Below are positions 1 to 50,922 of a stretch of DNA of 50,975 nt, one piece after another. The stretch lies in contig PLYL01000022.1 in assembly GCA_003151795.1 (NCBI GenBank), positions 1 to 50,975 on the forward strand, given 5' to 3'. Position 1 is the first letter of the stretch; every line of letters starts with the position of its first letter. The notes below the pieces were generated by a model. That model was not told the DNA's origin. It saw only the letters and a program-made list of their open reading frames with translations, and ran no database searches. The translations under genes were made by a program, and so were the position numbers. Origin of the DNA: Candidatus Yanofskybacteria bacterium. GTDB taxonomy: Bacteria > Patescibacteriota > Minisyncoccia > 2-02-FULL-40-12 > GWA2-44-9.

Positions 1-5
1 GGCAG

Positions 6-95
6 AACCCCGAAAGAAAAACACCCTTTCCTTTTTCAAAAGAAATTTCACCCCCGCCAAATCAGAAATGCAAGGAGTGTTTTTCTTTCGGGGTT
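6..95. repeat. 19-bp stem hairpin upstream of LSR1
   Basis: aaccccgaaagaaaaacac (6-24) / gtgtttttctttcggggtt (77-95). Confidence 0.85.
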
Positions 96-157
96 GCCGA
101 GGCTCTGCGAGGCAGTGGCGGGACGATTCATTCTCGCTCAAAAAAAGTTCGAGCAAA

Positions 158-166
158 TGATATAAT
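158..166 (+). promoter_or_regulatory. Extended -10 promoter candidate for LSR1
   Basis: TGaTATAAT immediately upstream of the CCACCA core of the internal repeat. Confidence 0.55.
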
Positions 167-170
167 GACA

Positions 171-302
171 CCACCAAACGAAACATTGTCGGAATTAAGA
201 AAACGGAGCGATTTTGCGGGAGCCAAAATCGCGCTATCATTTTTTTCAAAACCCTTTCCGCCTACGGCGGAAGCCGTGAATTCCCAAAGCTCCCCCCAAT
301 TG
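171..302. repeat. 132-bp inverted copy of 1717-1848 (LSR1 3' end plus tRNA CCACCA)
   Basis: ccaccaaacgaaacattgtc...ctccccccaattg is the reverse complement of caattggggggag...gacaatgtttcgtttggtgg. Confidence 0.95.
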
Positions 303-1848
303 AAATCATGAAAGAACTCAAACCAAAATATTTTCTCTACGCGAGGAAATCAACAGAGGATGATGACCACCAGATAATGTCTATTGAGGCACAGCTTTTT
401 GAATTGCACGAATATGCGCGTAGAGAAAATCTTGAAATTCTTGAGGAATTTCAAGAGTCGAAAAGCGCAAAGAAACCGGGTCGTGAACTATTTAACGAAA
501 TGATGGCCCGCATTGAAAATATGGACGGCGTAGGCATCCTCGCGTGGCATCCAGACCGTCTTGCTCGCAATAGTGTCGACGGCGGGCGCATCATTTACGC
601 AGTAGACACGACCAAAATAGTTTCTTTACGCTTTCCGACATTTTGGTTTGAGCCAACTCCGCAAGGCAAATTTATGTTGCAGGTGGCGTTCGGACAGAGT
701 AAGTATTACAGCGATAATCTAGTTGAAAATATTACGCGTGGTATCCGCCAAAAAGTCCGTCGAGGCGAGTGGTTGGTGCGCGCTCCCTTTGGCTATGTGA
801 ATAATCCAAAAACGAGAAATATTGAACCTCACCCGACTAAATCTCGCATTGTGGTGAAAGCGTTTGAAGAATACGCCAAAGGGACGCACACCCTCGGCAC
901 TATCGCGGACTTTTTGGCGGATCACGGCGTGAGTACGAAAGGAACGCCACCTGCCAAAGCTTCCGTCGCTCGTATGCTCTCAAATCGTGTCTATCTCGGC
1001 TTTACATACCACAAGGGCGAGTATTACGACGGAAGCTTTGCGCCAATTATTTCTCCGACACTGTTTGAAGCAGTCCAAAAAATGCTTGCGAAAAAATCTC
1101 GCCCTCGCGTGCAAAAAGTACCGAACCATTTTCCATTTGCACAATTCGCTCGGTGCGGTGAGTGCGGAAGTATGATTACGGCTCAATATGCGACAAATCG
1201 TTTTGGTACTAAATATACTTACTATCGCTGTACCAAAAAGAAAGGTGTTTGTCATCAGCCGTATCTATCATCTTCCGCACTCATTTCGCAAGCAAAAAAT
1301 CTGCTTCAATCAGTGTCGCTTCCTCTTTCAGAAATTGAGAACATGGAAAAGCAAATTGACTTGTGGGACAAAGAGTCAATTTCCGAAAGAGGAAGTGTTG
1401 CCCAAAATCTTAAAACCAAACTTTCCGAAACGAAGGAGAAGCTGGACAAACTTGTTTCCATTTATCTTGACGGCGATATTGAACGCGAAATATATTTACA
1501 GCGAAAAGACCTTCTCCTTCGTCAGAAAGCAACGTTTGAGGAAAGTTTTAAGGATTTTGGGCAACAGAGAAAAAATTGGGTCGAACCCTTGCGGAGTTTC
1601 GTTTTGTCTTTGAGAGAAGCCGTTATTTTGGAAAAAAGCGAAAACTATTTCGCATGGAAAGAGTTTTTCCAAAAAATCGGCTCTAACCCTATTCTCAAAG
1701 ACAAAACGCTTTCATGCAATTGGGGGGAGCTTTGGGAATTCACGGCTTCCGCCGTAGGCGGAAAGGGTTTTGAAAAAAATGATAGCGCGATTTTGGCTCC
1801 CGCAAAATCGCTCCGTTTTCTTAATTCCGACAATGTTTCGTTTGGTGG
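171..1848. mobile_element. LSR integrative element 1 at the tRNA-Ala(GGC) 3' end; left part continues beyond the window start
   Basis: LSR gene reads into the antisense tRNA 3' end; 132-bp inverted repeat 171-302 / 1717-1848 ends at the tRNA CCACCA. Confidence 0.8.
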
Positions 1849-1864
1849 ACCGTACCGGACTTGA
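308..1864 (+). CDS. Large serine recombinase (resolvase, recombinase and Zn-ribbon domains plus coiled coil)
   Basis: YARKS catalytic motif, DRLARN, PFGY, CGECG...YYRC...C. Confidence 0.95.
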   Translation: MKELKPKYFLYARKSTEDDDHQIMSIEAQLFELHEYARRENLEILEEFQESKSAKKPGRELFNEMMARIENMDGVGILAWHPDRLARNSVDGGRIIYAVDTTKIVSLRFPTFWFEPTPQGKFMLQVAFGQSKYYSDNLVENITRGIRQKVRRGEWLVRAPFGYVNNPKTRNIEPHPTKSRIVVKAFEEYAKGTHTLGTIADFLADHGVSTKGTPPAKASVARMLSNRVYLGFTYHKGEYYDGSFAPIISPTLFEAVQKMLAKKSRPRVQKVPNHFPFAQFARCGECGSMITAQYATNRFGTKYTYYRCTKKKGVCHQPYLSSSALISQAKNLLQSVSLPLSEIENMEKQIDLWDKESISERGSVAQNLKTKLSETKEKLDKLVSIYLDGDIEREIYLQRKDLLLRQKATFEESFKDFGQQRKNWVEPLRSFVLSLREAVILEKSENYFAWKEFFQKIGSNPILKDKTLSCNWGELWEFTASAVGGKGFEKNDSAILAPAKSLRFLNSDNVSFGGPYRT

Positions 1865-1918
1865 ACCGGTGACCTCTTCGATGCCATCGAAGCGCTCTAC
1901 CAGCTGAGCTAACGGCCC
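1843..1918 (-). tRNA. tRNA-Ala(GGC)
   Basis: GGGCCGTTAGCTCAGCTGGTAGAGCG-CTTCG-ATGGCAT-CGAAG...GGTTCAAGTCC...GGTCCACCA; G3:U70 pair. Confidence 0.97.
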
Positions 1919-1984
1919 ATACAGAACAAGCGTATACATACTAGTACACTTTCAATTGTTCTAATGTTCTGATATAATTATATC

Positions 1985-2590
1985 ATGAGAAGACACAGTA
2001 ATCAAACTATTACTCGCCTAAAGTTTCTGAGAAAAAAGGGGCACAGTATTGAAACACTTGTAAGAGAAATGTCCCTGCCCAAAACAACCATCTGGCACCA
2101 TATTCACAAAATTAAGCTGGCGGAAAAATATAGAAAAATATTAAAAGCAAACCAAGGAGGAAGTCGGTTAAAAAAAGAGAGGGATTTATTTCGGGCCCAA
2201 GAAGAGGCGAAAAAATTACTTGAGACTCCTGATAAATATTTATATGCTACTATCGCTTCTCTTTATTGGGCAGAGGGGAGCAGGGCTAGATGTGAACTCG
2301 TAAATACAGATGGGGAAATGATTAAACTTTACTTAAAAATACTTAGAAATTATCTAAAAATTCCAGAGGATAAAATTGAAGCAGTACTAAGGATTTTTTC
2401 AAATCACGAAAGAAACGAGTGTTTAGGTTATTGGTCTAATATCACTGGGATACCTAAAAATAAATTTATTATTTTTACAAATGATGGTGGCAATAGGGGT
2501 CGAGGTCATGGAATGTGCAGAATAGTTATAAGAAAGGGTGGATACACCTTAAAATTATTTAGAGCTATAATTAACGAGCTTTGCAAATAG
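1985..2590 (+). CDS. HTH plus LAGLIDADG-like domain protein between divergent tRNAs
   Basis: N-terminal HTH (SIETLVREMSLPKTTIW); LYWAEGS...LVNTD motif; YWS..TGIP; AT-rich. Confidence 0.6.
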   Translation: MRRHSNQTITRLKFLRKKGHSIETLVREMSLPKTTIWHHIHKIKLAEKYRKILKANQGGSRLKKERDLFRAQEEAKKLLETPDKYLYATIASLYWAEGSRARCELVNTDGEMIKLYLKILRNYLKIPEDKIEAVLRIFSNHERNECLGYWSNITGIPKNKFIIFTNDGGNRGRGHGMCRIVIRKGGYTLKLFRAIINELCK

Positions 2591-2597
2591 ATAAATT

Positions 2598-2670
2598 GTC
2601 CCGGTAGCTTAATGGATTAAGCAGCCCCGTCCTAAGGGGAAGACTGCAGGTTCAAGTCCTGCCCGGGACA
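2598..2670 (+). tRNA. tRNA-Arg(CCT)
   Basis: GTCCCGG/CCGGGAC acceptor stem, GTCCTAA anticodon loop, GGTTCAAGTCC T arm. Confidence 0.93.
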
Positions 2671-2678
2671 CATACAAA

Positions 2679-4112
2679 ATGCGATTACCGAAAGAAGTAC
2701 AATCGATTCTCTCAACCCTCAAAGAAGGGGGTTTTGAGGCGTATGTTGTCGGGGGATGTGTCCGTGATCTAATCGTCGGCAATGTGCCCAAAGACTGGGA
2801 TGTGACGACCAATGCCCCGCCCGAGAAAATTCAGGAACTTTTTCCCGAACACGTCTACGAAAACACGTTCGGCACCGTCGGCGTAAAGACGGGTTCCGCC
2901 GACCCAGTGCTCGCGCTGGTAGAAGTTACGCCCTACCGCACCGAAGGCAAGTATAGCGACAAACGCCATCCCGACAATGTAAAATTCGCGGCCAGGCTTG
3001 AAGACGACCTCTCGCGCCGCGACTTTACTATCAACGCGCTGGCGATGGATATTGAGGGCAACATTATCGATCCGTTCGAGGGCAAGAAAGACCTCAAAAA
3101 CAAAATTGTCCGCACGGTCGGCGCGGCCGAACAACGCTTCAACGAAGACGCTCTGCGCCTGCTCCGGGCGATTCGCTTCGCGGCCCAGCTTGGATTTGAG
3201 ATTGATTTGGAAACACAAACCGCGGTAAAGAAAAATGCCGAGTGGCTCCGCGCGATTTCCAAAGAACGTATCCGCGATGAATTCGTTAAAATTATCGAAT
3301 CGGATCAGGGCTACGAGGGTATCTTGTTATTGGAGGAACTGGGCCTCATGAAATACATCGTGCCCGAACTGCGAGAGGGTATCGGCATCGACCAGAATCT
3401 CCACCACATCTACACAGTCTGGGAACATAATACTCGAGCCATGAAATACGCGGTTGAGAAAAAATATTCTCTGGCTATTCGGCTGGGTGCCTTGTTCCAC
3501 GACATCGGCAAGCCCCGCACCAAACGCGGCGAGGGGAAGCACGCGACATTCTATGGCCACGAAGTCGTTGGCGCCCGCATGGCGGCCGGCATCATGGATA
3601 CGTTGAAATTTCCGAAAGATATCGGCGAAAAAATCGTAAAGCTTGTCCGCTATCATATGTTTTACTACAACGTCGACGAAGTCACCGAATCTTCGGTGCG
3701 CCGATTGCTAGTCAATGTCGGCCAGGAAAATGTCGAAGACCTGCTCAAAATCCGCGAAGCCGACCGGATTGGTTCGGGCCGGCCCAAAGCCATTCCGTAT
3801 AAACTCCGCCATCTCAAATACATCATCGACAAAGTTTCGCATGACCCCATCTCGGTCAAAATGCTCAAGGTCAACGGCGAAGACGTCATGGGCAAGCTTG
3901 CTTCGGGGCCTGGCGCTAAAATTGGACTGGTCTTGAATTGCTTGCTGGCCGAGGTGCTGGATGACCCGGCCAAGAATACTAAAGAGTATTTGATAGAACG
4001 CATCCGCGAACTCGACAAGCAGTCGCCCGAAAATTTAAAAAAGGCCCTGGAAAAAATCGAGCGGGCCCAAGAAGAAGAGGAAAAAGAACGAGCGAAAAAG
4101 TACTATGTTTAG
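2679..4112 (+). CDS. cca: CCA tRNA nucleotidyltransferase with HD domain
   Basis: VGGCVRD, DWD, RRDFTINA, EDALRLLRAIRF, HDIGK. Confidence 0.93.
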   Translation: MRLPKEVQSILSTLKEGGFEAYVVGGCVRDLIVGNVPKDWDVTTNAPPEKIQELFPEHVYENTFGTVGVKTGSADPVLALVEVTPYRTEGKYSDKRHPDNVKFAARLEDDLSRRDFTINALAMDIEGNIIDPFEGKKDLKNKIVRTVGAAEQRFNEDALRLLRAIRFAAQLGFEIDLETQTAVKKNAEWLRAISKERIRDEFVKIIESDQGYEGILLLEELGLMKYIVPELREGIGIDQNLHHIYTVWEHNTRAMKYAVEKKYSLAIRLGALFHDIGKPRTKRGEGKHATFYGHEVVGARMAAGIMDTLKFPKDIGEKIVKLVRYHMFYYNVDEVTESSVRRLLVNVGQENVEDLLKIREADRIGSGRPKAIPYKLRHLKYIIDKVSHDPISVKMLKVNGEDVMGKLASGPGAKIGLVLNCLLAEVLDDPAKNTKEYLIERIRELDKQSPENLKKALEKIERAQEEEEKERAKKYYV

Positions 4113-4152
4113 TCCTAGTAAAATACTGAGAATCTGATAAAATAGCTCGATA

Positions 4153-4223
4153 CGGGCCGGAGTATGCCAGTCGTACGCACGATTCGGGTTCGTGAAGACC
4201 GAGTGCAATTCTCGGCGGCCCGA
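4153..4223 (+). tRNA. tRNA-Pro(CGG) with atypical D and T loops
   Basis: CGGGCCG/CGGCCCG acceptor stem, CACGA-TTCGGGT-TCGTG anticodon arm, CCGAG-TGCAATT-CTCGG T arm. Confidence 0.85.
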
Positions 4224-4227
4224 AGGA

Positions 4228-4280
4228 TTGACGGAAATTTTTAGAGAGAGTACACTTAATTGTAACAAAGATTATTACAA
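4228..4280 (+). promoter_or_regulatory. Sigma70 promoter and palindromic operator of the TA operon
   Basis: TTGACG-17 bp-TACACT, followed by TTGTAA-N9-TTACAA. Confidence 0.6.
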
Positions 4281-4286
4281 AAAATA

Positions 4287-4499
4287 ATGAGAAACATTAT
4301 AAATATTTCGTTACCAAAAGAACTTGTGATGTCAGTAAAAAAAGAAGTTAAAAGGGGCAATTTTGCCAGTACAAGCGAATATTTCCGCCATCTTTTGCGC
4401 ATCCAGAAAGCGGCAAATGAGATCGAGGAAGCGCGTAACGACTGGGAGAATGGCCGTAAGAATTGGAAAGTATTGAAATCGCTTAAGGAATTGATGTAG
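4287..4499 (+). CDS. Ribbon-helix-helix (ParD-like) antitoxin
   Basis: INISLP...GNFASTSEYFRHLLR; lies directly upstream of a RelE-like toxin. Confidence 0.8.
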   Translation: MRNIINISLPKELVMSVKKEVKRGNFASTSEYFRHLLRIQKAANEIEEARNDWENGRKNWKVLKSLKELM

Positions 4500-4503
4500 G
4501 CTA

Positions 4504-4761
4504 ATGAAAATCTTTTACCACGCGAACTTCAAACAACAGTTTAAAAAGTTGCATCGCAATATACAGCTCTCGGCGTTGCACAAGGAACAAATTTTCAAAA
4601 TTGACCCATTTGATAAAAGCCTCGAGACCCACAAACTTCACGGACCGTTTAAAAACTCGTGGGCTTTTTCCGTGAACAACAAGTACAGGATAGCTTTTGA
4701 TTTTATGGACAATGATTTAGTTCTTTTCTTCGCCATAGGCACCCACGATATTTATAAATAA
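4504..4761 (+). CDS. RelE/ParE superfamily toxin
   Basis: 85 aa; HKLHG, YRIAF, IGTHDIY. Confidence 0.85.
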   Translation: MKIFYHANFKQQFKKLHRNIQLSALHKEQIFKIDPFDKSLETHKLHGPFKNSWAFSVNNKYRIAFDFMDNDLVLFFAIGTHDIYK

Positions 4762-4774
4762 AGAATATACGGCC

Positions 4775-5452
4775 ATGCGCGTCGCGATTTTTGGGAACAA
4801 TAAAGCTGAAGCGGAAAATCTGGCCGAGAAGGCCGGCTTCACTTTGGCTGATGACAAGCTGGATTTTGTCGTCAGTTACGGCGGAGATGGCACGTTTATG
4901 AAATCAGAGTTCGCGTATCCAGGCGTGCCGAAAATAGTTTTGAAAGATAGCCAAATCTGCAAAGTCTGTTCGGCATTTCCGAACGATGAAGTGCTGGCCA
5001 AAGTCCGAGCGGGGAGCTATGAGATTAGACCGCTCATCAAACTTGAAGCCACCGCCAATGGCCGGGCTATCACCGCCATGAACGATATCATCGTCCATAA
5101 CTCCGACCCGCGCCATGGCATCCGGTATCAAATTTGGTCAGATGGCCGTCAATTCGGCGATACCATCATCGGCGACGGCGTCGTCGTGGCCACGCCGTTC
5201 GGTTCCACGGCCTACTACCGAAGCATCACCGACAGCTTCTTTGAAACCGGCCTCGGCTTGGCCTTCAACAACAGCACCGAGCAGATGGACCATGTCGTCC
5301 TTGATGACCAGAAGACTATCAAGATTAAAATCACCCGCGGTATGGTCGGTGTCTACGCCGATAATCAGGAAGAACATTTAAACCTAAAAGAAGATGACGA
5401 AGTGGTAATTAAAAAATCAGCTTCGGTCGCACAGTGGGTAATAGTGAAATAG
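4775..5452 (+). CDS. nadK: NAD(+) kinase
   Basis: GGDGT, ND, GDGVVVATPFGSTAY. Confidence 0.9.
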   Translation: MRVAIFGNNKAEAENLAEKAGFTLADDKLDFVVSYGGDGTFMKSEFAYPGVPKIVLKDSQICKVCSAFPNDEVLAKVRAGSYEIRPLIKLEATANGRAITAMNDIIVHNSDPRHGIRYQIWSDGRQFGDTIIGDGVVVATPFGSTAYYRSITDSFFETGLGLAFNNSTEQMDHVVLDDQKTIKIKITRGMVGVYADNQEEHLNLKEDDEVVIKKSASVAQWVIVK

Positions 5453-5462
5453 CTTAATAATT

Positions 5463-5652
5463 GGGCCTGTCGTAAAGTGGTATTATACGACATTCGTTCA
5501 CCCGCCCAAACTTTCCCCTGGGCCCATAGCTCAGCTGGTAGAGCGCGTCATTCGCATTGACGAGGCCGCCGGTTCGAATCCGGCTGGGTCCACAGGAAAG
5601 TTTAGGCGGGCAAGTTGCCGGGTCGGGAGTCCGATTCTCCCCAGGTCCACCA
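5463..5652 (+). tRNA. Interrupted tRNA-Ala-like gene (outer), with a roughly 115-nt insert in the anticodon loop
   Basis: 5' half GGGCCTG-TC-GTAA-AGTGGTA-TTAT-A-CGACA-TTCG; 3' half TGCCG-GGTC-GGGAG-TCCGATT-CTCCC-CAGGTCC-ACCA; G3:U70 pair. Confidence 0.75.
5520..5592 (+). tRNA. tRNA-Ala(CGC), nested inside the outer tRNA-like gene
   Basis: Canonical cloverleaf: GGGCCCA/TGGGTCC, CGTCA-TTCGCAT-TGACG, GGTTCGAATCC. Confidence 0.96.
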
Positions 5653-7119
5653 GAGAGGAAATTGCAAGTTTTTGGGCATAGGGCCGCCGCAGGCGGCCAC
5701 CAAATCGTAAGGAATTTTGGGCGAAAAAAGCAGTTGGCGATTCTGCAAAATGCAGTTCGAGCCGATATTTTTAAGAAATGTTGTCATTTCCGATTTGTTT
5801 TCAAATTCAAGCAGTTTAGAGGCTTGATTCAAGGACAAAACAAACTCACGAGCCGGTTCGAGCCAAGATAATCCTATTTGTTCAAAATCCGTAATTTTCT
5901 CGCCAAGCCCTACCTTTTGGATAACAAGGATTTCCTTTCTTACTTTGTAGTCATCGGCAGAAATGACCTCGTTAAGATATACGTCAAGAAGTTTTTGGAG
6001 TTTGGCCTCAATCTTGGTTAATTCTGTTTTGAAATTTTGAACAGTAGTTTTAGCTTCCTCTTTTGCTCGGCTTTCATCTTTTTCTAGCTCGGCTAAAACT
6101 TTCTTGGTGTCTTGGCTTGACAAAGAAACTTTTTGAAGAAACGACTTAACTTGTTTATATAGTTCTTCATCTCGCAAAAAATACTTTTCTTGGCACGGCC
6201 CTTTCTTTTTCGTGCACCGATAGTAAATATATTCTCTACCGCTTGGCTTGATTTTCTTTTCGGCTGTTATAGCTGCAGAACAAGGACATTTCATTAAGCC
6301 AAGAAAAGCAAAATTATGTTTCTTAATTTTTTGCGATTTTCCTTTTTCTCGCATGATCTCTTGTACTCTATCAAAAAGTTTCTTTGAAATAAGCGGCTCG
6401 TGAGTTCCTTGGAAAATTTCTCCTTTGTATTTCATCAGCCCTATATAAAAAACATTTTGGAGTATTTTAGGGACTTGCGAGATATACATACCTTTATCCA
6501 AATTGCTTTTGGTACTTACTCGCATATACCACTCGGCTAATTCTCGGAGGTTGTAATTTCCAGTGGCATAAAGCTCAAAAAGTTTTTTTACTTTGCGGGC
6601 TTTTTCTGTATTAACATCAATCCCGCGTGTCTTTGGATTATTGAGATAGCCGAGCGGTGCTTTGCTAGGCCAAACTCCGTTTCTCACTTTTTGTCTCATC
6701 CCACGAGTTACATTTTCACGTAGGGCGTCCACATAATATTTTGATTGGCCAAAAGCAATTTGGAGCATAAAAAGTCCTTGTGGCGTTGGTTCAAACCAAA
6801 ATGTTGGAAATTTCAACGCTTTAATCAAGCCGCGATCTATCATGTGAATTATTCTTCCGCCATCTACGGAATTACGAGCAAGACGGTCGGGATTCCACGA
6901 AAGTATGCCGTCCGCTTTTCCTCTCTCAATCAATGCCAACATTTCTGCGAATTTAATTCGCCCAGGTTCTTTGGCAGTTTTTGCCTCTTGAAGAGAGGCG
7001 ACGATTTCAAGTTTTTCTTTGGCGGCAAATTCTTTTAACTCAAAGATTTGGGCCTCAATACTCAAAATTTGTCTATCGTCATCTTCGGTGCTCTTGCGAG
7101 CGTAAAGTATATATTTCAT
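5602..7119 (-). CDS. Large serine recombinase
   Basis: YARKS, DRLARN, PLGY, CPC...YYRC...C, coiled coil; C-terminus reads into the antisense tRNA. Confidence 0.95.
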   Translation of the reverse strand: MKYILYARKSTEDDDRQILSIEAQIFELKEFAAKEKLEIVASLQEAKTAKEPGRIKFAEMLALIERGKADGILSWNPDRLARNSVDGGRIIHMIDRGLIKALKFPTFWFEPTPQGLFMLQIAFGQSKYYVDALRENVTRGMRQKVRNGVWPSKAPLGYLNNPKTRGIDVNTEKARKVKKLFELYATGNYNLRELAEWYMRVSTKSNLDKGMYISQVPKILQNVFYIGLMKYKGEIFQGTHEPLISKKLFDRVQEIMREKGKSQKIKKHNFAFLGLMKCPCSAAITAEKKIKPSGREYIYYRCTKKKGPCQEKYFLRDEELYKQVKSFLQKVSLSSQDTKKVLAELEKDESRAKEEAKTTVQNFKTELTKIEAKLQKLLDVYLNEVISADDYKVRKEILVIQKVGLGEKITDFEQIGLSWLEPAREFVLSLNQASKLLEFENKSEMTTFLKNIGSNCILQNRQLLFSPKIPYDLVAACGGPMPKNLQFPLWWTWGESDSRPGNLPA

Positions 7120-7152
7120 ATGGTTTTGATTAAAAATTTTCTTTTCCCAAAA

Positions 7153-7253
7153 TGCAGAATCGCCAACTGCTTTTTTCGCCCAAAATTCCTTACGATTTGG
7201 TGGCCGCCTGCGGCGGCCCTATGCCCAAAAACTTGCAATTTCCTCTCTGGTGG
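7153..7253. repeat. 101-bp inverted copy of 5647-5747
   Basis: tgcagaatcgcc...ctctggtgg is the reverse complement of ccaccagag...ggcgattctgca. Confidence 0.95.
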
Positions 7254-7338
7254 TCTATTCTTAAAGTAGTTCGGACGCATTTCGCCGCCAAGGGCGGCGG
7301 GGATCTGGCCAAAAATTCCGAACCGAAATTCTGAACTT
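7250..7338. repeat. 89-bp inverted copy of 8294-8382
   Basis: gtggtctattcttaaag...ttctgaactt is the reverse complement of aagttcagaa...ctttaagaatagaccac. Confidence 0.95.
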
Positions 7339-7446
7339 AAAAACTGCCAAAGAACCTGATAAAAATATCGGCTCGGACCGCATTTTAATTTTGGGAAAAG
7401 AAAATTTTTAATCATTTATTATTAAATCATTAAGCATATAATTTTT

Positions 7447-8229
7447 ATGTCTAACGAAGAATACAAACCAATACCCAAGGAGGTTACAGGCGCAGAAACA
7501 TCTATGCCTGCTGAGCATAGTGAGGCAAGAAGCAAAGATTACAAAACATACGACATTCCAAGACTCACACTAGATTTAACCAACGAACTTGAAACCAAGC
7601 TTATTGTCCCACTTGAAGAAGCTCGTCAAGTCAAGGCTGCTTTAGAATCACTCGAAGATCTTGCGAAGCGTGTTCCAATTAGAATCATCAAAAGTTCTTT
7701 TTCTGGCGGTAGTGGTCGTGCAGATCCTCATAACGAAGGTCCCGGCCCGTGGGCTCCTGAAACAGCAATTAGATACTTGGAATTAGAAGGTCCAGAAGTT
7801 GGATCCCTCAACGAACTTGCATCATCTCTTCGCTATCTAATTGTGGATTTTAACACCGCGAGGAAAGCTGCTGTATCAATTAAACAACAAGGTGGATCAG
7901 GGAAGAAGGCTTTTATTATGATACCTAATTCTGAAGAGAATGGCCTCTATGTAAATCTACATAAGGCCATAGATAAGAAGGGTATAATCGACCACTTTGA
8001 ACCAATAGCACAAGCCAAACTGGATAATGTCACTCAGGAGTGGATTCCACGACTTAGGTCTAATATAAAGAGTACTTTCTTAAAGGCAGTGGAGATTCTT
8101 CGAGAATCCGCTGCAAATCCATCAAGTTGGTCGGATTCGAGTGACCCCTCAACATTCCCCAAGGATCGTCCTGAAACTCTCTTGAGTTTAGCAAAGGAAA
8201 TTGAGGAAATGGAAAGACATATAAACTGA
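7447..8229 (+). CDS. Hypothetical protein, sole cargo of element 2
   Basis: 260-aa ORF with ATG start, divergent from the LSR; no recognised motif. Confidence 0.75.
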   Translation: MSNEEYKPIPKEVTGAETSMPAEHSEARSKDYKTYDIPRLTLDLTNELETKLIVPLEEARQVKAALESLEDLAKRVPIRIIKSSFSGGSGRADPHNEGPGPWAPETAIRYLELEGPEVGSLNELASSLRYLIVDFNTARKAAVSIKQQGGSGKKAFIMIPNSEENGLYVNLHKAIDKKGIIDHFEPIAQAKLDNVTQEWIPRLRSNIKSTFLKAVEILRESAANPSSWSDSSDPSTFPKDRPETLLSLAKEIEEMERHIN

Positions 8230-8479
8230 GTCTGGGGCCTTAGAGTTCAAATAAGAAGAGAATTTGCCGCCAAAGAAAAACTTGAAATTGTCAAAGTTCA
8301 GAATTTCGGTTCGGAATTTTTGGCCAGATCCCCGCCGCCCTTGGCGGCGAAATGCGTCCGAACTACTTTAAGAATAGACCACAACGTTGTCAACATAATT
8401 CATTGGAAGTGGATAAGTGTCTAGTGAAAATAGAGATCCCTAAATTAGGCCTTGTTTTTCCTTAGTTTTTAATGCTTAA

Positions 8480-9004
8480 ATATCTCTATATGCGACAGGA
8501 AAGCTAGCGTATATATCGGGGTCGTTCCATGTTCAGTCCAACAGTGCACGGCAGATTCTACGCGAACACGGAATTTCCTACGGTGACAACATTCGATCAA
8601 TCGTGCGCGCAGTCGTCGAAGACATCATCGGCCGAGGCTGGTCGGTGGTACTCGACGGCATGATGTTGGGGGAAGACGAACGTATGATCGTGCGCAACCT
8701 CGCCACCAAGTACAACGCCCTGTTCTCTTTCAACGCCATGATCTGCGATCCAAACCTGGCCGAAGAACGAGCGAGGAAACGATATGCGGACGGCAAGGAG
8801 TCAAGCTTTGAAGATTGGCGAGCCAGTGATCCGGAACAGTATTTCAAGGACATCCACAGCCGCACCAAGCTCGTGGAAGAACTGCTCGCCAAAATCCCGA
8901 CTGATCCGCTGGAACGGATCGGGATGATCGACAACAACGCCGGCGAGCAAGATCTGGTCAACTGGCTGCACCCGATCTGGAGAAACATTGCCAACCGACT
9001 GTAA
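8480..9004 (+). pseudogene. Possible 5'-degraded AAA_33/nucleotide-kinase-like gene
   Basis: GWSVVLDG and CDPNLAEERARKR lid-like segment; open frame extends to about 8480 without an ATG or intact P-loop. Confidence 0.45.
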
Positions 9005-23991: not shown

Positions 23992-24198
23992 TTAGGGTTT
24001 TCTCACGGCTTCCTCTTGGACTAGTCCTAAAAATTATCTCTCATTTCTCTGGCCGCCCGGGATTACCCTTGTCGGGCCATGTGGTTTTCCTTTCAGGAAA
24101 GCCCATTCCCGACATTCCCGGCTCGGTTCCCAGAGAAATCTCTATATAATTTTTGAACTAGTTTCCAATCGTGCAGATTGTGAGAAAACCCTAATTAC
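23988..24198. repeat. Long imperfect hairpin with 19-bp perfect terminal inverted repeats
   Basis: gtaattagggttttctcac / gtgagaaaaccctaattac plus nested inner arms. Confidence 0.85.
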
Positions 24199-38796: not shown

Positions 38797-38969
38797 AGAT
38801 TCCTCAAGATTATTTCTGGCCCAGCTCCCAATCGTGCAGATTGTGAGAAAAGTAACAAGGCCCCGCTTCTTTTGATGTTGATAAGTTTTCACGGGCTGTG
38901 AGTTTATAAGGGTTTTTTGATTAGTCCCACAGGGTGTACAACATGTAAAAATTCACATATCATAAGGGT

Positions 38970-49423: not shown

Positions 49424-50746
49424 ATGAACAATACAACCCAAGTGCCAATCGGGGCTATGGCCAAGGGAATACCAGCCCCCATAAAGGTCAGATATTGCCT
49501 GTATGCAAGAAAAAGCACCGAGTCAGAAGAACAGCAGATCCTCAGTATAGATAGCCAAATCAAGGAGATGCTGGCTATAGCCGAGCGTGACCATCTGGAA
49601 GTAGTAGAGATCAAGAAGGAATCCCACTCTGCCAAGGAAGCCGGACAACGACCAGTCTTCAATGAAATCGTGGATGAAATCAAGATCGGCAAATTCAATG
49701 GCATCCTGACCTGGGCGGCCGATCGTATCTCCCGAAACGCCGGAGACTTAGGCCGAATCGTCGATCTCATGGATAGCCAACAACTCATTGAAATCCGAAC
49801 CTATGGGCAGAAATTCACCAATAGCCCGAATGAGAAGTTTCTTCTTATGATTCTCGGGAGCCAAGCCAAGCTCGAGAACGACAACAAGGTCGTAAATGTA
49901 AAGCGAGGGCTAAGAGCCAGATGCGAGATGGGCTTGTGGCCATGTACTGCCCCGACCGGATATCTAAACAGCACCAGCAAGGAGAAGAGTTGTCATGTTG
50001 AGTTAGATCCCCACCGAGCACCCGTCATCAAGAAGATGTTTGAAAAGATAGCTTATGAAAAATACAGCGGCCGGAGATTACACGCTTGGCTCAAAGATGA
50101 ACTGAAATTCACGACTAAGAATGGCAAGCCACTTACAATCAGTAATATCTATCTGACTCTTCGCAATACCTTCTACTATGGTAGTTTTGAATATCCGAGA
50201 GGCGGAGGTCAGTGGTATACCGGCAAGCATACGCCCATTATTACTAAGGAATTGTTTGATGCCGTTCAAGCCCAGATGTCAGACTATGAACTCAAAGGAA
50301 GCCATAAGGAGTTTGCCTTCACGAAATTAATGACCTGCGGTCTCTGTGGCAGTGGCATTACCGCCGATGAGAAATTCAAGAAACAGCAGAATGGCAATCT
50401 CCATCGCTATGTCTACTATGGTTGCTCAAGATTCCAAAATAAGAATTGCAAATCCGGCTATATGCGAGAGGAAGATTTGATTGAACAACTAGCTGGTCTT
50501 ATGGACAAGATCGACTTGGACGAGATTGGCATAAAAGAACGAATCAAATCTGAAATCGAACGGCACAAGAAATTCCAATCAGGGCTTCTTGGTATCAGAG
50601 AAAAATCAATCAAAGTTGGCGATATTGATATCCGGAACTATGCTAAATATATACTAAGAGACGGGACGATATTGGAGAAGCGGGAGTTACTAACTTGTCT
50701 GAGGAGTAAGATAACGATGGCGAACAAAGAAATTAAAATCATCTAG
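49424..50746 (+). CDS. Large serine recombinase (short C-terminal region)
   Basis: YARKS, DRISRN, PTGY, CGLCG...YYGC...C. Confidence 0.94.
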   Translation: MNNTTQVPIGAMAKGIPAPIKVRYCLYARKSTESEEQQILSIDSQIKEMLAIAERDHLEVVEIKKESHSAKEAGQRPVFNEIVDEIKIGKFNGILTWAADRISRNAGDLGRIVDLMDSQQLIEIRTYGQKFTNSPNEKFLLMILGSQAKLENDNKVVNVKRGLRARCEMGLWPCTAPTGYLNSTSKEKSCHVELDPHRAPVIKKMFEKIAYEKYSGRRLHAWLKDELKFTTKNGKPLTISNIYLTLRNTFYYGSFEYPRGGGQWYTGKHTPIITKELFDAVQAQMSDYELKGSHKEFAFTKLMTCGLCGSGITADEKFKKQQNGNLHRYVYYGCSRFQNKNCKSGYMREEDLIEQLAGLMDKIDLDEIGIKERIKSEIERHKKFQSGLLGIREKSIKVGDIDIRNYAKYILRDGTILEKRELLTCLRSKITMANKEIKII

Positions 50747-50750
50747 CTGA

Positions 50751-50796
50751 AAGCAAAGGAAAACCCATCAAATATTCGATGGGTTTTCCTTTGCTT
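50751..50796. terminator. Terminator hairpin between LSR3 and tRNA-Arg
   Basis: aagcaaaggaaaacccatc / gatgggttttcctttgctt. Confidence 0.8.
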
Positions 50797-50850
50797 GACT
50801 CAACCGAACCGGTGTCGCCTTGACCCCGTTCGGTCGGTCTCACATGCCTG

Positions 50851-50922
50851 TGCGCCCGGAGGGAATCGAACCCCCACCAACAGCTTCGAAGGCTGCTGCT
50901 CTATCCGTTGAGCTACGGGCGC
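50851..50922 (-). tRNA. tRNA-Arg(TCG)
   Basis: GCGCCCGTAGCTCAACGGATAGAGCA-GCAGC-CTTCGAA-GCTGT...GGTTCGATTCC...CGGGCGCA. Confidence 0.96.

Follow-up and report, generated by a model that had tools for sequence, protein, structure and literature searches.

Large serine recombinases (LSRs) such as those of phiC31, Bxb1, A118/LI and SPbeta (SprA) combine Resolvase, Recombinase and Zn-ribbon domains with a coiled-coil insertion and a catalytic Ser. They act on short sites with a core of a few bp, and a motif lies 5-6 bp farther out in attP than in attB. To our knowledge, the answer to how a serine integrase chooses its direction has so far always been a separate directionality protein at the base of the coiled coil; the extreme C-terminus of SprA is also said, in a title, to be a component of a "toggle switch". 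For the SPbeta integrase, the available text of PMC11722253 has the essential helix of the directionality factor packing at the coiled-coil base. The locus described here lies at positions 128-1918 of a 50,975-nucleotide stretch of DNA (contig PLYL01000022.1, assembly GCA_003151795.1) from Candidatus Yanofskybacteria bacterium. The whole stretch is called the window; it is contig C22 of a 766-kb, 25-contig genome. Positions 128-1918 are the tRNA-proximal end of a ~10-kb LSR-driven integrative element (element 1, with recombinase LSR1) at the 3' end of a tRNA-Ala(GGC) gene, and a second element of the same design (element 2, with LSR2) lies farther along the window. The best explanation for the whole, which we consider reasonably probable, is an LSR element with the crossover core within its own recombinase gene, a recombinase C-terminus that depends on the state of integration, and an inverted spare copy of the 3' end of the gene.

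The family differs from the phage LSRs in several ways. The crossover falls inside the recombinase open reading frame (ORF). A second, complete and inverted attP-type copy is kept, and the repeats are near-perfect and 85-435 nt long. The attB motif is the universal T-loop of tRNA, and at least 11 tRNA types are targeted. No directionality factor has been identified, and no search aimed at one was made. The likeness to the SPbeta SprA system is a helix at the coiled-coil base, modelled here against residues 337-352, where the coiled coil starts, and 422-431, where it returns. The difference is that the present helix would belong to the recombinase, and its presence would be set by the arrangement of the DNA of the element and not by a second protein.

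Other described systems share single features of the design. The 2-micron plasmid (FLP/FRT) has 599-bp inverted repeats and two unique segments, with the recombinase gene in one of them. Like that plasmid and the Hin/Gin systems, the present elements have long perfect inverted repeats with a short site, and cargo flips are suggested. They differ in using an LSR, not a tyrosine recombinase or a small invertase, and in being mobile and integrated in tRNA genes, with a recombinase segment that is almost never flipped and no replication function evident. BPs and SSV1, both with tyrosine recombinases, have in common with the present family an att site within a gene whose product is changed by integration. 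SSV1-type integrase genes are split mid-gene by integration, and we know of no inverted spare copy of the severed piece in either BPs or SSV1. The gene concerned in mycobacteriophage BPs is the repressor; an attachment site within a gene and integration-dependent immunity are described in the available text of PMC4557955. Tycheposons, of which a minority use an LSR, resemble the present family as small cargo elements at tRNA genes that form tandem arrays, but they are described without an att site inside the recombinase gene or an inverted att copy, and inverted repeats are named there in the title of a reference alone (available text of 10.1101/2020.12.28.424599).

Our literature search, which left supplements outside its scope, found no description of this layout or of a serine recombinase gene spanning its own attP; recombinase catalogues may list members of the family. 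What appears to be new is a core within the recombinase ORF and a conserved C-terminal peptide that would be read in frame across the junction of two repeat arms. If the explanation is right, these elements sense their state without a directionality factor, a mechanism not described for any recombinase. The family would be a directly testable alternative, in which the arrangement of the element adds or removes a C-terminal helix predicted to lie at the coiled-coil base. Each element also supplies a natural attP/attB pair with a tRNA T-loop for the development of recombinase tools. Finally, the mobile elements of Patescibacteria are little known, and this family carries defence cargo and occupies several percent of this 766-kb genome.

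Insertion at the 3' ends of tRNA genes

The arms of the repeats are named by what they flank. Arm A flanks the recombinase on its 3' side and A' on its 5' side; B flanks the cargo internally, and B' is distal. A preliminary description of this DNA had reported that a 132-bp inverted copy of the 3' end of LSR1 stops at the CCACCA of the tRNA-Ala. This held exactly: the two arms are 100% complementary over 132 nt, and the repeat lengthens to 314/1709 (144 nt, 97.2%) if a 4-nt indel is allowed. The 3' CCACCA of the tRNA-Ala(GGC) called by both ARAGORN and Rfam (1848..1843) forms the outermost letters of the right arm; CCACCA also opens the left arm. The same layout was correctly described for element 2, with its CCACCA at 5647-5652, as was a GC-rich palindrome in each element (ttccgcctacggcggaa within 171-302 and ggccgccgcaggcggcc within 5647-5747). 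The repeats of the two elements are unrelated, as had been said; BLAST between their arms gives no similarity. The span of 128-1918 needs one adjustment at its right edge, where 1918 is the 5' end of the tRNA and element 1 proper stops at 1848. The left edge of the window falls inside element 1, within arm B, the whole of which is about 366 nt by comparison with L006, a public locus whose recombinase is 99% identical to LSR1. The features are collected in Table 1.

Table 1. Coordinates of the features of elements 1 and 2 in the window.
Feature	Position	Strand	Remarks
Element 1 arm B, core-proximal 174 nt	1-174	+	Completed by the end of C2; inverted partner B' begins at C2:46579
Spare intact 3' end of the LSR1 frame	128-301	-	57 codons and stop; from translation, conservation and motif scan
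Internal crossover core CCACCA	171-176	+	Junction of arms B and A'
Element 1 arm A', the LSR1 5' leader	171-302	+	Perfect inverted copy of 1717-1848
LSR1 ORF, integrated form, 518 aa	308-1864	+	Resolvase, Recombinase and Zn_ribbon_recom domains
Element 1 arm A	1717-1848	+	LSR1 residues ~470 to 513; P'-type half of attL
tRNA-Ala(GGC), integration target	1843-1918	-	3' CCACCA common to arm A
Element 2, 2,736 nt	5647-8382	-	Same design as element 1
Element 2 arm A	5647-5747		Paired with A' 7153-7253, 101 nt, 100%
Element 2 arm B	7250-7338		Paired with B' 8294-8382, 89 nt, 100%
LSR2 ORF, 505 aa	5602-7119	-	48% identical to LSR1
Element 2 cargo ORF, 260 aa	7447-8229	+	Flanked by B and B'

Both recombinases have the hallmarks of LSRs. 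The catalytic domain PF00239 matches LSR1 and LSR2 with E values of 5e-22 and 1e-20, and PF07508 and PF13408 are over their cut-offs, with four invariant Cys. R13-K14-S15-T16 is invariant in the five paralogues of this genome and in a set of 43 sequences, the catalytic Ser lying in YxRxST. An AlphaFold2 (AF2) model has the coiled-coil insertion as long helices at 339-387 and 392-419. At 505-518 aa, with LSR domains and in a locus that is an insertion absent from relatives, these proteins do not fit the Hin/Gin invertases, which are small serine recombinases with a C-terminal HTH and act on a fixed segment of the chromosome. Among the viral contigs of IMG/VR there are five relatives only, which rules out typical phage integrases.

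The far end of element 1 lies on another contig. The preliminary description had predicted that an inverted copy of the region left of 171, ending at the core, would lie beyond the window, and it was recovered at C2:46579-46603, where GTGG precedes the reverse complement of window 150-170. The identity ends at the core, and a 20-N scaffold gap comes next. Beyond the gap, C2 carries ~7.6 kb of cargo genes, and it closes with ~160 nt that repeat, in inverted orientation and with 3 mismatches in 136 nt, the sequence right after the gap. L006 aligns unbroken over the end of C2 and the start of C22, and by that comparison only ~25-30 nt are absent between the two contigs. The cargo encodes an HsdR-like protein, an HsdM-HsdS fusion, an HsdS fragment and a pair formed by an AAA_21 ATPase and an RloB-like protein, the pair being best matched by AbiLi/AbiLii. 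By its predicted products it is a type I restriction-modification system with an AbiL-like pair.

Empty sites are available for both elements. In G003, a genome of the same genus, the gene that flanks element 1 on C2 (at C2:46578) lies 51 nt from a tRNA-Ala(GGC) that is 97% identical to the one in the window; the junction there reads TTTTAAGTT, GTGG, ACCGTACCGG. In G002, a tRNA-Ala(CGC) is 37 nt from a homologue of the gene at window 9080, and the corresponding interval in the present genome is 3.48 kb and contains the 2,736-nt element 2. In each comparison, the boundary between occupied and empty site falls at the att core. Both elements are insertions at tRNA 3' ends. The presence of the family is patchy, with a match at E <= 1e-40 in 26 of 41 genomes of relatives (three of five within the genus), and the copy number among relatives ranges from 0 to 8.

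The core inside the recombinase reading frame

The homology between LSR1 and LSR2 stops at residue 468, which is the inner edge of arm A. Arm A of LSR1 codes for a short conserved helix and then a variable linker, and the final five codons and the stop of the integrated ORF are tRNA-Ala antisense. For the family counts that follow, one genome per species was scanned; this gave at least 580 relatives, of which the best 80 were kept. In 50 of 56 loci no stop interrupts the ORF in arm A or the core, and the frame runs on into tRNA antisense; among the exceptions, two genes carry a frameshift. Joining arm A at the core with reverse-complemented B keeps the frame in 37 of 40 loci and brings a stop 40-62 nt past the arm in 22 of 27. 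This joined reading ends in a conserved peptide, (I/L)(L/I)xFARTxFE, with the crossover ~8 codons before the invariant Arg. Over 46 elements the consensus is [C/W/G]xx[I/L][L/I]x[F][A/V]-R-T-[Y/F/H]-F-[E], with R in all 46, T in 44 and F in 40.

In the codons of this peptide, the mean information is 0.86, 1.07 and 0.51 bits for the first, second and third positions, the third being least, and the hydrophobic positions are drawn from many different codons. The DNA motif GGTTCGnGCAAA is the reverse complement of the codons for Phe-Ala-Arg-Thr, and its variable bases are the wobble positions of Ala and Thr. A promoter beside the core, with TGaTATAAT (157-166), or TAnnAT family-wide, as a -10 box, is possible but less likely: the promoter scan did not flag it, and each of the two conserved A's falls at the second position of a codon for a hydrophobic residue.

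In element 1, the minus strand of the window from 301 to 128 reads unbroken to SFGGVIISFARTFFERE and a stop, and the integrated LSR1 ends in SFGGPYRT. The spare 3' end thus read encodes the arm A linker, the core and the conserved C-terminal peptide (GGVIISFARTFFERE and a stop). The conserved last ~14 codons of the recombinase sit left of 171 on the opposite strand; the integrated gene is without them, and in the present orientation no recombinase body is joined to the spare copy in the window. As a small ORF of its own, the spare 3' end has no ATG, GTG or TTG start that gives at least 50 aa. A six-frame scan of the genome with the motif returned nine matches, seven of them at internal or distal sites of four elements; the match in the window is at 140-166 on the minus strand. 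On the evidence of these reading frames, the crossover core lies within the recombinase ORF, and beyond it there is a conserved in-frame C-terminal peptide with an intact inverted spare copy.

The public record mostly holds the other form of the protein. The database relatives number 6,321 proteins at E <= 1e-30 among 8,000 candidates scored. Of the best 120 of these, seven have the motif at their C-terminus, plus one variant recognised by eye, and most others end in tRNA-antisense translation. In a separate set of 80 metagenome loci, the ORF leaves the contig in 13, has a tRNA-antisense tail in 49 and ends in the motif in seven (7 of 67 readable). Most annotated family proteins (P0001-P0120) end in recurring peptides, such as GDPTGNRTPI and GGPYRTRTCH. 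These are translations of tRNA-Glu and tRNA-Ala antisense, and public entries for the family therefore mostly carry a false C-terminus in place of the true one.

The geometry of the sites identifies the internal copy. The arm B motif GTTCG lies 23-24 nt from the repeat boundary, and GTTCRA of the tRNA T-loop lies at 18 nt in most loci; in four loci the T-loop is at 15 nt and the arm B motif at 21 nt. Of 34 loci, 27 show a shift of +5 or +6, and the remainder are mis-hits of the regular expression. Hence the same distal motif occurs in attP and attB, about 5 bp nearer the centre in attB. For LI integrase, the motif of the zinc-ribbon domain is shifted by 5 bp between attP and attB half-sites in the available text of PMC3783163. 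By this likeness in register, B, core and A' together would be a complete attP-type site and the tRNA end an attB. That arm B might simply be equivalent to the tRNA half-site, so that products equal substrates and no directionality problem arises, is ruled out by the 5-6 bp shift. The 132-nt repeat is thus half of a composite repeat made of arm B, a 4-6-nt core and arm A. Element 1 has one complete composite copy at window ~1-302, inverted relative to the ends of the element. The other copy was divided by integration, leaving A at attL beside the tRNA and B' at the far end. Read in this way, arms B and A' around 171-176 form a predicted attP-type site inverted with respect to attL, and the integrated element holds attL, attR and this extra inverted attP.

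A structure for the full-length protein was modelled with P0057, for which AF2 on a 43-row alignment gave a mean pLDDT of 81.1 and a pTM of 0.44. The residues encoded by arm A (484-495 and 499-505) have a pLDDT below 50, and the arm A linker is probably disordered. The terminal helix, 511-528, has means of 75 and 71 for its 10-residue blocks. When the body (1-483) and the tail (484-529) were modelled as a complex, the score was 0.64, and the best of three controls scored 0.01. The mark used for such models is attained by 58 of 80 solved complexes and by 2 of 110 mismatched pairs. At least 77% of the contacts recur between runs, and the partner pLDDT is at least 57. The tail (510-527) contacts the body at 337-352, 422-431 and 473-482, which is the base of the coiled coil. 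We infer from the model that the C-terminal helix may dock at the coiled-coil base, the region of directionality control in other LSRs.

Some of these properties would also be expected of an ordinary LSR element. The inverted copy would then be a cis-regulatory module (promoter, operator, leader or terminator insulator), the arm B motif nothing but a DNA-binding half-site and the peptide a functionless by-product. Arm B must be a P-type half-site in any case, and its GTTCG mirrors the tRNA T-loop. The arm hairpins score as terminator-like in both orientations, every element has an intact internal site immediately ahead of its recombinase, and other integrases autoregulate by binding their own att region, as this one might. 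We nevertheless regard this account as unlikely. It leaves unexplained the frame kept across arms of differing length, the ORF held open through arm A and the core, the minimum at the third codon position with its hydrophobic-to-hydrophobic changes, and a tail that is modelled as a docking helix; nor was the site flagged by the promoter scan, as said above.

Spread of the design and the proposed switch

The preliminary description had taken the design to be a family trait. The survey agrees: five elements of this genome have it, and the A/A' repeat is present in 42 of the 45 public loci with enough flank to be tested. The arms have a median of 133 nt and a median identity of 98.5%, and are identical in 21 of 55 pairs. 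The B/B' repeat is found in 20 of 25 loci, and A' and B have 4-9 nt in common in 22 of 26 cases (GTGG in element 2). In 56 of 66 loci the 3' end of the recombinase faces a convergent minus-strand tRNA, and arm A reaches 3-6 nt into it. For nine loci, no B' was found within the available upstream sequence with seven half-site mismatches allowed; there the cargo may be longer than the stored flank. The three loci that lack the A/A' repeat at the usual place are L073, with a weak match only (72% over 99 nt), and L069 and L072, which carry the repeat farther upstream (620-740 nt). The contigs of the latter two are labelled Bacteroidetes (L069, 9193-11540, a contig of 1.15 Mb) and Chitinophagaceae (L072, 19-2444). 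They have the same inverted copy, which in L069 includes the C-terminal motif, and the design is therefore not confined to Patescibacteria, where the family is concentrated, and may be older than that group.

It had also been claimed that the arms are kept identical within each element. They do co-vary: L005 has five substitutions shared by both arms, and L007 has seven shared and one different. They are not always identical; the arms of an element on contig C15 of this genome are 90.8% alike, and those of L006, at 92%, look recombinant. Recombinases that are 93-99% identical can carry unrelated cargo, and the homology of arm B then ends 28-41 nt from the core; most of B therefore travels with the cargo. 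Tandem arrays of two or three elements occur in L038 (1-14400), L031 (7500-17883) and L114 (3000-11357). Arm A of one element directly meets the B' of its neighbour in L031 and L114, with the core alone between them, as if recombination had taken place between an attP and an attR-type site. The elements of L038 are separated by repeats of a 175-nt spacer, which starts with a 3' fragment of tRNA-Ser. The recombinase of L114 is a contiguous full-length form that reads into B' of the neighbouring element, and its assembly is unambiguous there because the arms are only 72.5% alike.

Repeats of this kind could in principle be products of metagenome assemblers or chimeras of amplification. Contigs do often break there: 33 of 80 have less than 500 nt ahead of the recombinase, and so the repeat evidently breaks assemblies just upstream of the gene, and the window itself starts inside arm B. 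Yet the same layout recurs with different sequences and arm lengths, from many assemblers and in contigs of 0.2-1.1 Mb. Some arms are imperfect (72-96% alike), which an artefact would not yield, and arms co-vary between related elements. The arms are moreover covered by Logan contigs of four runs from three studies, which were compared with window 1-9000. We consider an artefact extremely improbable.

The orientation of the segments bears on an account in which the system is akin to a shufflon or the 2-micron plasmid. Its main job would be to flip the recombinase or cargo segments, for phase variation of the cargo or isomerisation of the circle, and the C-terminal swap would be secondary. Long perfect inverted repeats, which carry the site at their outer ends, enclose each segment, and the excised form would have two inverted composite repeats like the 2-micron plasmid, although no replication gene was recognised in the cargo, including that of the 2.7-kb element 2. 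Cargo homologues are oppositely oriented between element 1 and 10 other elements (given the scaffold join) and between L006 and four. Logan contigs of two other studies join 8383 to the reverse complement of 7250 onward. This "opposite strands" joint, seen in X5 and X6, has the cargo of element 2 inverted, but the contigs have 2-4x depth and are built from 31-mers over an 89-nt repeat. A skip of 118 nt at 5496/5615, in X2, was taken to come from another organism. The recombinase segment is found flipped, in the order tRNA(+), core, leader, recombinase, in L029 and L180; these are two of 160 loci in an otherwise near-uniform orientation, and both contigs end in the other arm. Empty sites and many tRNA targets speak for mobility and not for a fixed switch, and canonical LSRs do not recombine attP with attL or attR, according to the available text of PMC3783163. 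That flipping is the main job thus seems to us quite unlikely.

For an element with a C-terminus set by integration, we propose the following course. Arm A would encode a short helix and a linker, and the reverse complement of B the conserved C-terminal helix. Because this helix is encoded beyond the crossover core, the full-length recombinase can be read solely with A joined to B'-type sequence, either in the excised circle or after the LSR segment has flipped toward the internal copy. In the integrated form, the helix would be exchanged for a few codons of tRNA antisense. Integration via the attP copy at the 3' end of the gene would remove the helix, and the helix-less enzyme would be inactive or switched in direction, which would stabilise the integrated state. 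Integration would in this manner switch the activity or direction of the recombinase without a separate directionality factor. The inverted copy inside the element would store a spare 3' end and perhaps a 5' control region, and excision, or recombination between the long perfect arms, would restore the full gene. The near-uniform truncated orientation of the copies would be explained by the inactivity or switching of the helix-less enzyme. We infer that the C-terminus of the recombinase depends on the state of integration. The broader claim is of a wide LSR family with its own directionality or activity switch in the structure of the gene, full-length in the circle and helix-less when integrated, with an inverted attP that lets arms of 100-400 bp rebuild the gene. 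It is offered tentatively, as possible more than probable.

Several points weigh against such a switch. If the truncated enzyme is inactive, mobility needs a rare inversion; if it is active in excision, the spare copy is without an obvious role. The DNA motif of arm B must double as a recombinase-binding half-site, and part of its conservation is therefore not a constraint on protein coding. The promoter scan did not find a recombinase promoter. Most contiguous full-length ORFs, which would fit a circle, could be assembler paths through perfect repeats, and so could the flipped L029 and L180. The Logan contigs gave no excision or circle joint over window 1-9000, which carries no weight, as they are built from 31-mers and cannot phase repeats of 89-132 nt, and the junction of a circle would have the sequence of the internal site, so that short contigs cannot tell the two apart. 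The orientation of the element 1 cargo depends on the scaffold join. The docking model uses two pieces of one protein and a shallow alignment (eight rows for the tail), and its score could reflect likeness to solved complexes of LSRs with directionality factors.

Other recombinases and neighbouring features

The five elements of the design in this genome are the two in the window, C2:21990-24640, C15:47377-51122 and one on C6 that is interrupted by the contig end; their recombinases are 40-57% mutually identical. The elements on C2 and C15 abut near-identical flanks (gccactcgggttaag; 21927-21989 on C2, ~47310-47376 on C15), whose core is CCGCCA or CCGC. The C2 flank has another copy at C2:26408-26463. 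No tRNA was called in these flanks and Rfam gives no family; the flank probably derives from the 3' end of a tRNA-Ser gene that has decayed, its core being CCGCCA.

Three other LSRs of this genome are of a shorter type (~440 aa, 33-36% identical to LSR1), at window 49424-50922, C2:14471-15508 and C15:23888-24940. They adjoin tRNA-Arg(TCG) or tRNA-Ser genes, and the repeats were absent from all three. The copy in the window has palindromes of 34-46 nt at both its ends.

Element 2 adjoins an older tRNA-Ala fragment and not the intact tRNA-Ala(CGC) gene. The fragment is a second tRNA-Ala 3' half at 5615-5650, 27 nt downstream of tRNA-Ala(CGC) and 86% identical to the native 3' half in G005. The tRNA-Ala(CGC) itself, at 5520-5593, has 18-nt flanks that pair with each other (5501-5526 with 5585-5610) and lengthen the acceptor stem.

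The two tRNA-Ala genes of the window are divergent and 3.6 kb apart (window 1919-5519), and both elements face outward from them. Between them are a 201-aa ORF without a family, a tRNA-Arg(CCT), an NAD-kinase-like gene and, at 2679-4112, a gene of the CCA-adding enzyme/poly(A) polymerase family. Elsewhere in the window there is a 49-nt direct repeat (24140-24188 and 38803-38851), 82% identical, with its copies 14.7 kb apart and unrelated to the elements.

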